The notes below the pieces were generated by a model that saw only the letters and a list, made by a program, of their open reading frames with translations, was not told where the DNA came from and made no database searches. A stretch of DNA of 64,000 nt from Chloroflexota bacterium (GTDB taxonomy: Bacteria; Chloroflexota; Limnocylindria; Limnocylindrales; CSP1-4). Made by a program: the position numbers and the translations under genes. The DNA is taken from positions 102,642 to 166,641 of the forward strand of contig JACPOS010000009.1 in the NCBI GenBank assembly GCA_016191395.1, written 5' to 3'. This document shows, piece by piece, positions 28,356 to 30,390 of this stretch (the first letter of the stretch is position 1; each line of letters begins with the position of its first letter).

Positions 28356-29093
28356 CTACGGTCGCGCGACGAGCCTGTAGGGAGCTTCGCTGGATCCTCC
28401 TCCGGCCGCCCACAAGATCGCGCGCCCTGGCCAGGGATCGGATCCGCGAAGGGCATCCAGCGCGTCCCGCGGATCAGCCGGGTACGCCGTTCGGAGAAGG
28501 CGGCGATGCTCATCGGCGACGCCACGGGTCGTCCGCGTTTCTCGCACGACCACCAGCTGCGAGATCGCTGGCTCAGGTTCGAGACGAGCCCAGCCCTCCC
28601 ACGATGGCAAGGCCGCCGCCTTGGCCTCCGCCCAGCGGATCTGCTGCTCCAGGCGCCGAAGCCCGGATTCGATCTCGATGGCCAAGAACACCGCGGCCTT
28701 CGCGTCATGGAATCCGAGGTCGATCCAGCCGCGCGACGGCCGCGTGACCGCGATCTCGGTGAACCGTGCCCATCGCGGATGCACGATGCCCAGGAGTGCT
28801 TCGGCGATGGCGGACTGATGGCGATCTCGAATCGTTGCCCCGGTAGTCGGGTACAACCGCAGGCTCATATCGGCACCCAGCACCATCGCGAGCCTGGCGT
28901 ACGTATCGAGAGAGGCACTCTGCGCGCCCGCCTCGATGCGCCTGATGAAGCTCGCATCGACGCCGGACGCGCGCGCCAGCTCGGCCACAGTCAGCCCAGC
29001 GTCCTCACGCTGCCGGAGGACGTCCGCGCCGGCGCTCGCGCGGGCATGGCCTGCCGCCCGCCTCGCCGCACGCTCCCGTGCAAGGTTCGTCAT
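28356..29093 (-). CDS. XRE-HTH protein fused to a restriction-endonuclease-like (PD-(D/E)XK/DUF559-like) domain
   Basis: [32 protein letters not shown]-terminal E...GWIDL...LAIEIES; start 29093 or 29102. Confidence 0.75.
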
Positions 29094-29213
29094 CGTTCCC
29101 ATTGAACCCGAACGCGCTTATCTGTCGGTCAACCGTGTCGGGCCGTGGATCTGCGGCCGCTCGCCGCCCTGCGGCCGGTGGCGGCTGCCGAGCGACTCGC
29201 ACAGCGGACTGCC

Positions 29214-29370
29214 GCACGCAGCGTCCGGAATGTTGGGCCGGCGTGTCGCCAGCCGGACCTGCAATCCGGTCTGACGCGGTTCCCGGGTCATTCGCGCGCG
29301 AAAGACGGCGATCTTTGGACAACGCGTCCGATTCGCTGCACGGGACGCCCGGATCTCGGACTGGGAGTCC
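29214..29370. repeat. Array of four GGAC-N5-GTCC palindromes (spacing 41/62/41 bp) upstream of the HTH-nuclease gene
   Basis: GCACGCAGCGTCC 29214, GGACCTGCAATCC 29255, GGACAACGCGTCC 29317, GGACTGGGAGTCC 29358. Confidence 0.8.
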
Positions 29371-29433
29371 TGAGCTTGCCCACCCGGCGGCGAACCGGGG
29401 GCCGTGAACCCGGCCCTGGTCGCTGGCGCCGAC

Positions 29434-30390
29434 CTACGCGGCGCGAGCCCTGACGCGGAGGACCGCGAGCACGCGCGGGTCGACCCAGCCGGGCGCGGCG
29501 GTTCGCTCCTCGAGGTTCTCGACGCCCATCCAGTCCCAGAGCGCGTCCTGCCAGGCGTCGTCCCAGTTGGATGGCGTCGGTCCGGGCGTTCCGGTCATGG
29601 GTCGATCCGCCTTGTCGCCGCCGGCGGCTGCGGCGGCATCGGGGTTCATCGGCTGGTAGACGTTGCCGAAGCGGCCGCCCGGCTCCGCGCCGATCTTCGT
29701 CAGCAGCTTGCGCATCTCGGCGGCGAGCGTGGCGTCGACCGGCAGGAGGTCGCCGACGGCAGGCCGGTCCAGGTACAGCCGCTGCAGGTCCAGCAGCCGG
29801 CCCAGCTCGCCGATTGGGTCATCGTGATGGTCCACGCGAAGGTCGACCCAGCGATCGTTCGCACCGCCGTACCCGCCGCCCGCGCGCACGATCAGGAGCG
29901 AGGCGGACTCACGCCCGCGGCGGTCGCCGCCCTGCGCGTCGGCGGCGGCCAGGCAGGCGACGAGCAGCTCGGGGAACGGCCGGCCACCGCCCACGAGCGT
30001 GTCCACGAGGCCGTCGACCACCGCGGGGCCGGCGAGGATGTTGCCCTGGGCCGCGAACCCGGGACCGGTGAGGCCGCCGGCCCATGCGAAGCACGACCCG
30101 CCGGTGTGCGTCGCCGCGCCGCCGCGGGCGTCCACCATCCCGACCTGGCGCTGGCTTCGGAGTGGGTCCGCATTCACCAGGCGCTCCAGCGCCTGGTGCG
30201 CCGGCATCCCGCTGGCCATGCGGGCGAGGCCGCCTGGCCCGAACGTGACGTTCGCGAACGACTGCGTCGCGACCGCTCCCACGCCTGCCTGGGCCCACGG
30301 CACGACCGCTCCGACGGCGAGGAACTTGGACTGGACCGCGACCCCGAGGTCGCCGGTCGCGGGGTCGAGCGCGACGATCGAATAGGTCAT
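29434..30390 (-). CDS. DUF1028 domain protein (Ntn-hydrolase-like)
   Basis: MTYSIVA...GVAVQSKFLAVG...GGDRRGRESA...DLRVDHH...ENLEER. Confidence 0.92.
   Translation of the reverse strand: MTYSIVALDPATGDLGVAVQSKFLAVGAVVPWAQAGVGAVATQSFANVTFGPGGLARMASGMPAHQALERLVNADPLRSQRQVGMVDARGGAATHTGGSCFAWAGGLTGPGFAAQGNILAGPAVVDGLVDTLVGGGRPFPELLVACLAAADAQGGDRRGRESASLLIVRAGGGYGGANDRWVDLRVDHHDDPIGELGRLLDLQRLYLDRPAVGDLLPVDATLAAEMRKLLTKIGAEPGGRFGNVYQPMNPDAAAAAGGDKADRPMTGTPGPTPSNWDDAWQDALWDWMGVENLEERTAAPGWVDPRVLAVLRVRARAA

Follow-up and report, generated by a model that had tools for sequence, protein, structure and literature searches.

The controller proteins of restriction-modification (R-M) systems have the closest known fold to the DNA-reading half of the protein described in this work. 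PvuII-like controllers are dimeric proteins of the XRE-type helix-turn-helix (HTH) class that read GACT-N3-AGTC boxes cooperatively (PMC2175313). Controller proteins consist of an HTH domain only, are about 70-100 residues long, are encoded beside R-M genes and have operators in which 4 nt separate two adjacent boxes. Lrp-family regulators and phage repressors, in turn, are oligomeric regulators that act through cooperative, helically phased operator arrays. A further point of comparison is provided by the REP/BIME elements and their RAYT genes, in which short palindromes form dispersed intergenic composites with fixed linkers. Here we describe a gene and a set of DNA arrays that resemble each of these systems in part. 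They were found in a stretch of 64,000 nucleotides, hereafter the window, from a Chloroflexota bacterium of the Limnocylindria (GCA_016191395.1, contig JACPOS010000009.1, positions 102,642 to 166,641 of the forward strand). The gene joins an XRE-type HTH to a domain with the PD-(D/E)XK nuclease fold, and upstream of it lie four phased 13-bp palindromes of the type GGAC-N5-GTCC, which we call array A. What is new is a lineage-specific family of HTH plus nuclease-fold regulators, and a conserved, helically phased four-site cis-element. A brief keyword search of the literature returned nothing on XRE-HTH/PD-(D/E)XK fusions and nothing relevant on repeats of the Limnocylindria.

The comparison with these systems shows both likeness and difference. 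The HTH is closest in fold to the controller proteins C.PvuII, C.AhdI, C.BclI and C.Esp1396I, and the core of their sites, GACT-N3-AGTC, is also found in the strongest array sites. However, the protein adds a nuclease-fold domain of 155 aa to the HTH, its gene has DUF1028 and leuC as neighbours with no adjacent methyltransferase or endonuclease gene, the arrays are single boxes at distances of 41/62/41 bp, and the family has many paralogs. Like the operators of Lrp-family regulators and phage repressors, the arrays are dimer-sized palindromes at whole helical turns, located upstream of the protein's own gene and of others. The protein family is a different one, though, the four-site layout of 157 bp is fixed at many loci, and the nuclease-fold domain takes the place of a known ligand-binding domain. 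With REP/BIME and RAYT the arrays share the dispersed, intergenic composites of short palindromes, the fixed linkers and a candidate cognate gene beside one copy, but there is no Y1 transposase, there are about five copies rather than hundreds, and neither similarity between copies nor complementarity of hairpins is seen.

The gene is located at 28356..29102 on the minus strand and encodes 248 aa from the ATG at 29102 to a stop codon at 28356-28358. A database copy, P0002, is 100% identical over 245 aa and starts at the second ATG, at 29093, which is probably the true start, giving a product of 245 aa. This copy and the Pfam-typed neighbours bear out the original prediction of a 245-aa open reading frame (ORF) between leuC and a DUF1028 gene. 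The N-terminal HTH that had been read from the sequence is likewise secure: residues 30-82 (28857..29015, minus strand) match Pfam HTH_3 (4.5e-09, 36.7 bits, cut-off 23) and HTH_31 (8.2e-09, 36.1 bits, cut-off 27). An AlphaFold2 (AF2) model of the whole protein has a pLDDT of 93.3, and its five-helix HTH fold matches many XRE structures at Z 9-11.7 with root-mean-square deviations (rmsd) of 1.2-2 Å, the best being C.BclI (Z 11.7) and C.AhdI (Z 11.6). Searches with the protein against NCBIfam and PADLOC matched the HTH part and nothing else, a sequence-profile search of the PDB returned HTH chains only, and Foldseek with the whole model gave HTH matches plus one weak SduA row.

The protein is predicted to form a homodimer. 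The modelled pair scores 0.57 against 0.00 for the best control, with at least 63% of contacts agreeing between runs and a partner pLDDT of at least 79; the pass mark used was attained for 20 of 30 proteins whose solved structure is a pair and for 1 of 23 whose solved structure is a single chain. The modelled interface consists of residues 6-31 and 62-87, that is, the HTH half. Because XRE dimers have already been solved, this pass may echo the likeness to them.

The C-terminal half, residues 92-248 (28359..28829, minus strand), matches no family in Pfam, NCBIfam or PADLOC, and no Pfam or NCBIfam match was found outside the HTH at E<=1. Modelling and fold searches nevertheless assign it to the PD-(D/E)XK nuclease-like fold. 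Folded alone it reaches a pLDDT of 95.3 and a pTM of 0.90 (AF2), and its secondary-structure order, H-E-E-E-H-E, is that of the alpha-beta-beta-beta-alpha-beta core. In a structural search against representative folds the top match is the XisH-like 2okf (Z 9.2, rmsd 3.3, 119 aligned residues, 12% identity), followed by NucS (2vld, Z 8.9), SfsA (4dap, Z 8.4), AF2093 (Z 8.3) and Upx (Z 8.0). Judged from entry titles, nearly all of the 50 fold rows listed are restriction-endonuclease-fold proteins, among them restriction enzymes, Can2/Card1, Hjc, McrC and Vsr. Foldseek with this domain agrees on the fold, weakly (best E 0.012), and in the ESM Atlas its matches are limited to unnamed Chloroflexota clusters. 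XisH, NucS/EndoMS and SfsA therefore share the core fold of the domain (Z 9.2, 8.9 and 8.4 over 103-120 residues), and the conserved acidic residues that PD-(D/E)XK proteins carry on strands 2 and 3 are present as well. Unlike XisH, NucS and SfsA, the domain belongs to no sequence family, has E, Q, H or N in place of the Lys and is joined to a different N-terminal partner.

The residues in question are E116, the stretch G125-W-I-D128-L and the stretch I-E143-I-E145-S146. In an alignment of 48 sequences D93, E116, G125, D128, E143, K161, P208 and G226 are invariant, with D128 on strand 2 and E143 on strand 3. Position 145, the canonical Lys, is E here and E, Q, H, N and others in the homologs of this alignment, so that the catalytic motif D...(D/E)-x-K is absent from the domain. 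The PD-(D/E)XK-like core with Glu at the Lys position, as originally predicted, is thus what model, fold search and alignment return. In the active enzymes BamHI and BglII an E or Q stands in place of this Lys; therefore, a residue other than Lys at position 145 does not alone mean inactivity. The invariant K161, on the helix after strand 3, might replace the missing Lys.

The DNA element is best described from array A. Its site 1 (29214..29226), the nearest to the XRE gene, and site 2 (29255..29267) each have one mismatch to GGAC-N5-GTCC, whereas site 3 (29317..29329) and site 4 (29358..29370) are exact, the last with the core GACT-N3-AGTC. The four palindromes are where they had been predicted to be, 41, 62 and 41 bp apart. 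These distances correspond to about 4, 6 and 4 helical turns, which places the four sites on a common face of the DNA. Array B (38860..39017) has the same layout, with sites at 38860, 38901, 38964 (2 mismatches) and 39005, and is located between leuB (37655-38821) and a citramalate/isopropylmalate-synthase-like (LeuA/CimA-like) gene (39057-40709). The resemblance between the central spacers of the two arrays, noticed in the original prediction, amounts, counted by hand and allowing one gap, to about 17 of 23 positions. The shared motif (29270..29291, plus strand, in array A; 38918-38940 in array B) stands at the same place in both, just after site 2, and related motifs after site 2 in other arrays give every array an orientation. 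Shortly before array B, at the 3′ end of leuB, there is a tandem repeat of period 12/24 (38749-38800).

The XRE gene does not have such an array to itself: this genome, labelled G000 (2.42 Mb, 89.9% complete; other G labels denote compared genomes, and C labels denote contigs), carries the conserved 157-bp cis-element in five copies, array A among them. All five are intergenic and have the layout 0/41/103-104/144-145 bp. The other three are located between MttB and MTHFR (C28:22098-22254), between a FabA-like (fabZ) gene and a metallophosphoesterase gene (C5:22535-22692) and between two aldehyde dehydrogenase (ALDH) genes (C19:163316-163472). The consensus of the sites is GGACTG-N-CAGTCC, and short AT-containing words flank them. 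Single exact GGAC-N5-GTCC sites are not significantly enriched: the window has 7 against 3.1 expected, a count reached by 5 of 100 shuffles, and the whole genome has 110. Isolated exact sites at window positions 7458 and 49842 have no phased partner and are consistent with chance. It is the phased combination that is significant and stands out. Of the 8 one-mismatch site pairs at spacing 41 in G000, 7 belong to arrays. A four-site matrix scan found 6 places in G000 (the five arrays and a weak one) and 0 in the reversed genome; because the matrix was trained on five of those six places, this shows only that there are no further strong arrays and that the control is empty. A weak candidate array of fifth rank, at C29:73495, scores 34 against 45-53 for the others, and lies 13 kb from a paralog of the XRE gene (P2, see below). 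Scans of arrays A and B for sigma-70 and terminator consensus sequences found 0 sites.

The element is also found in related genomes. Of 66 genomes from the genus, 15 have exact site pairs with a spacer of 27-29 nt, against 1 genome for a control pattern read backwards; among 24 genomes from another family (first draw), 0 had a pair. Twelve arrays in the loci that we fetched have spacings of 41-42/62-64/41-42 bp. Arrays occupy orthologous places in different species: between the two ALDH genes in G000 and G034, and between MttB and MTHFR in G000 and G014. A third such place, between a Cys/Met pyridoxal-phosphate (PLP) enzyme gene and PEPCK, is common to G082, G025 and G003. These last three, whose first site is as in array B, were considered as orthologs of the leuB-cimA array and rejected on account of their flanks. 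Further contexts are thrS-infC, COX2<>CtaG, MoaE genes and AAA_16 genes. At orthologous places the spacers can no longer be recognised as related, yet the sites hold and so do the distances between them. Such a pattern points to selection acting on site sequence and phasing, as would be expected if a protein bound along a single helix face. This suggests that the arrays are protein docking sites rather than parts of a mobile element. Contig C244 of G014 carries two four-site arrays 4.3 kb apart (18327-18484 and 22635-22791) with clearly related spacers; the first is upstream of an AAA_16 ATPase gene, and in G021 an AAA_16 gene also follows the array-XRE pair. In G034 the one array found has degenerate sites.

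The protein belongs to a sizeable family. A word-indexed search placed 314 of 8000 scored candidates at E<=0.001, and an exhaustive search returned 1049 representatives at E<=1e-3, 339 at 1e-10 and 84 at 1e-30. The few named homologs are annotated as XRE regulators from metagenome-assembled genomes of Chloroflexota and Candidatus Limnocylindrales. In G000 alone there are 13 family matches at E<=1e-10, of which 11 cover both domains. Some matches to the family contain in-frame stops. Three genomes (G003, G007 and G025) appeared to lack the family when searched with the single protein; a search with the family profile overturned this. A second XRE-type HTH protein, unrelated to the first, is encoded 2 kb away in the window (31524-32063, plus strand; 179 aa, HTH_31 4.1e-11).

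Does the protein bind the arrays? Sequence comparisons make this plausible. GGAC arrays are found upstream of 3 of 14 orthologs (G000, G021 and G063), in two different left-flank contexts. An ortholog is present in 8 of the 15 array-bearing genomes and in 7 of the 51 others (Fisher p 0.003, with related genomes that are not independent). In two of the genomes with an array and no ortholog, leuC is broken by a contig end. The paralogs have palindromes of their own. Upstream of P2 are two perfect 13-mers 42 bp apart (C29:85969 and 86011) that share the CTG-N-CAG core and have other outer triplets; G000 contains 27 palindromes of this type, from which 0.0006 pairs would be expected. Upstream of P3 is a GGAC-type pair, also 42 bp apart, and P4 has the sole TGACT-N3-AGTCA of the genome 12 nt before its start. 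Over the family as a whole, 12 of 31 upstream regions contain a palindrome of such a type, against about 2.9 expected.

Our preferred reading, to which we give a probability of roughly 0.45, is that the gene represents a Chloroflexota-restricted, multi-paralog family of dimeric regulators of about 250 aa that bind phased 13-bp palindromes. The HTH half would dimerise symmetrically, with the PD-(D/E)XK-fold domain attached. Dimers of the XRE protein, or of a very close paralog, would sit on all four palindromes and assemble into a higher-order complex controlling the adjacent promoters. These would be the promoter of its own leuCD operon at array A and that of the leuA/cimA-like gene, 10 kb away, at array B. 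The C-terminal domain could cut DNA in such a complex, or could serve as an effector or assembly module.

A number of observations weigh against the XRE protein as the reader of these arrays. No GGAC array is found upstream of 11 of the 14 orthologs, which have other tandem repeats or a short intergenic region instead, and 7 genomes have an ortholog without an exact site pair. Conversely, G014 has 5 exact pairs but lacks an XRE gene in front of leuC, and the closest family member there is 51% identical to the XRE protein. The presumed recognition helix differs among the orthologs of array-bearing genomes, while their sites are alike. Some 125 nt separate the start codon from the nearest site of array A, a long distance for simple repression. 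The genes that flank arrays are very diverse (fabZ/metallophosphoesterase, ALDH, MttB/MTHFR, thrS/infC, PEPCK, COX2/CtaG), and one array is located between two genes that converge, so that a promoter would not be expected there. The training of the four-site matrix on the arrays that it scores belongs here too.

The position of the gene gives the leucine connection. Directly downstream, 70 nt away on the same strand, is leuC of the aconitase family (26837..28285, minus strand; Aconitase 1.6e-171), followed by leuD (Aconitase_C, ORF 26208-27041). On the other side is a DUF1028 gene with a PG_binding_2 domain (29434..30390, minus strand; Pfam 1.5e-69), whose stop is 64 nt from site 4. The 'echo' between the stop-codon context of the XRE gene and the 3′ end of the DUF1028 gene, also part of the original prediction, is a loose likeness of two GC-rich gene ends that we treat as chance. 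The 14 orthologs with usable flanks are 57-100% identical, and 10 of them (G000, G066, G005, G078, G033, G069, G087, G031, G088 and G063) immediately precede leuC in the same orientation. The G063 copy has a small ORF called in between, and 2 of the 10 overlap leuC or leave a gap of 3 nt. To the left is either DUF1028 or an ilvB-like gene in divergent orientation. By this placement the gene acts like the lead gene of a leuCD unit.

The gene before leuC is nonetheless dispensable. Among 26 DUF1028 loci, 4 have an XRE gene before leuC, 9 have leuC directly after DUF1028, and the remainder have other neighbours or a contig edge; the 1.1-kb stretch of gene and array is therefore a presence/absence difference between species. 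In G034 the last 46 codons of an ortholog, a deletion remnant, lie between the ilvB-like gene and leuC (C1 ~72750-72887; L093:3084-3212). Between G000 and G066 the XRE protein, at 65-67% identity, diverges faster than DUF1028, at 89%. Only G000 has an array at the DUF1028 locus; the intergenic regions of the other three gene-bearing genomes are 45-100 nt and hold just a promoter-proximal module, TAAGC...TTCAAT. In the window this module, TAAGC-N9-TTCAAT (29101..29120, minus strand), ends 7 nt before the second ATG, and it is common to paralogs. With N9 or N20 it has 3 of 4 genome-wide matches upstream of family genes, the further copies being at C29:86149-86179 and C19:263806-263825. It could be a -10-like element of a leaderless mRNA, an operator of the family, or both.

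The upstream regions show some other features. Looser RTAAGY words occur before most of the 13 family matches. The two spacer classes of the TAAGC...TTCAAT module, N9 and N20, differ by about one helical turn. In other species the regions upstream of orthologs and paralogs are hypervariable, with differing short tandem repeats of units of about 11-62 nt (L032, L033, L034, L038, L039, L050 and L027:1-230), and contig C183 of G014 starts inside such a repeat. Four orthologs share a ACATTGACT-N4-GGACAA-type motif about 200-300 nt upstream. Two contigs of array-bearing assemblies (G007:C214 and G025:C209) start inside leuC, leaving the upstream region unassembled; the repeats may break assemblies.

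Another protein could be the one that reads the arrays. They may dock a different DNA-binding or nucleoid-associated protein with genome-wide targets, leaving the XRE protein as a local regulator of leuCD with the TAAGC...TTCAAT module as its operator; the nearness of the XRE gene to arrays in three genomes would then be secondary. The unrelated housekeeping genes beside the arrays, the one convergent pair, the many orthologs without arrays, the strong arrays of G014 without an ortholog at leuC and the unconserved recognition helix would all fit this, as would a family-specific module at the starts of family genes. It accounts poorly, however, for an association seen at the locus level in two independent contexts and again at the genome level, for paralogs with phased palindromes of their own that keep the CTG-N-CAG core and the 42-bp spacing, and for the unique TGACT-N3-AGTCA at the start of P4. 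On balance we regard a different binder as possible and rather doubtful. A bolder reading is a new kind of site-specific DNA processing: each paralog would read its own phased arrays through an HTH dimer and nick or cut with a BamHI-like centre that has no Lys, the arrays being sites of programmed breakage, recombination or propagation. That would make the system a PD-(D/E)XK counterpart of REP/RAYT, domesticated before essential biosynthetic operons, which we think improbable.

The original prediction went further, and saw the gene and array as an autonomous element. In such a REPtron-like arrangement the nuclease-fold protein would nick or cut the palindromes, and so spread or maintain the arrays. 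A sequence-reading HTH joined to a nuclease fold with invariant acidic residues is what one might expect of it, and the locus is patchy, with the stretch absent from 9 related genomes and the gene present in 4. The many paralogs, some with in-frame stops, the 46-aa remnant in G034 and the fast divergence of the protein relative to its DUF1028 neighbour also fit. The hallmarks of mobility were not found, however. No inverted terminal repeats surround 12 family genes: in 11 the best inverted match is not above the best of 30 shuffles, and in the twelfth it is 32 against 28, under the preset margin. No target-site duplication is evident by eye at the locus junctions. The Y1 transposase family PF01797 (IS200/IS605 type) has 0 matches in G000, at its completeness of 89.9%, and 6 of 14 control genomes match. 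Comparing the arrays with blastn gave only chance words of 15-19 nt, i.e. no likeness beyond the motifs. Paired sites do not complement each other at their centres (1.77 of 5 positions), and there is little excess of hairpins, with a mean folding z of -0.62 against spacer shuffles and 7 of 30 units below -2. In addition, arrays stay at orthologous loci across species with diverged spacers, and the gene is conserved before leuC, usually without an array, as in the other three genomes that have it at the DUF1028 locus. The claim of mobilisation is thus not supported, and we consider an autonomous element very unlikely. Least probable of all, to the point of being remote, is that the arrays are structured RNA elements, for example leaders or sites of processing, and are transcribed together with their neighbours. 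Most arrays are between co-directional genes, and a short hairpin of 4-6 bp is possible at each site. But Rfam 15 has 0 matches at gathering score in the whole window, the folding z-scores of the two intergenic regions (-1.78 and -1.93) are not compelling, and the GGAC/GTCC letters of the stems show conservation, not covariation, with loops of paired sites that are not complementary. Moreover, the arrays, when oriented by their central motif, point both ways relative to the neighbouring genes, and the layout is dyad-symmetric.

If the preferred reading, a family of dimeric regulators on phased palindromes, is correct, Chloroflexota of the Limnocylindria type would own a large regulator family, with at least 11 two-domain copies in a genome of 2.4 Mb. 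These regulators would combine a controller-protein-like HTH with a restriction-enzyme fold on a rigid, phased four-site platform that has long been kept at particular intergenic regions. The arrays would then be a defined cis-element that goes unnoticed in present annotation pipelines, and the C-terminal domain would put the PD-(D/E)XK fold to a new use or represent a new catalytic variant of it. Should its nuclease centre be active, the protein would be a naturally HTH-targeted nuclease of wider interest. For this uncultured lineage, the gene and its arrays would provide a testable entry into gene regulation, including the control of leucine biosynthesis.

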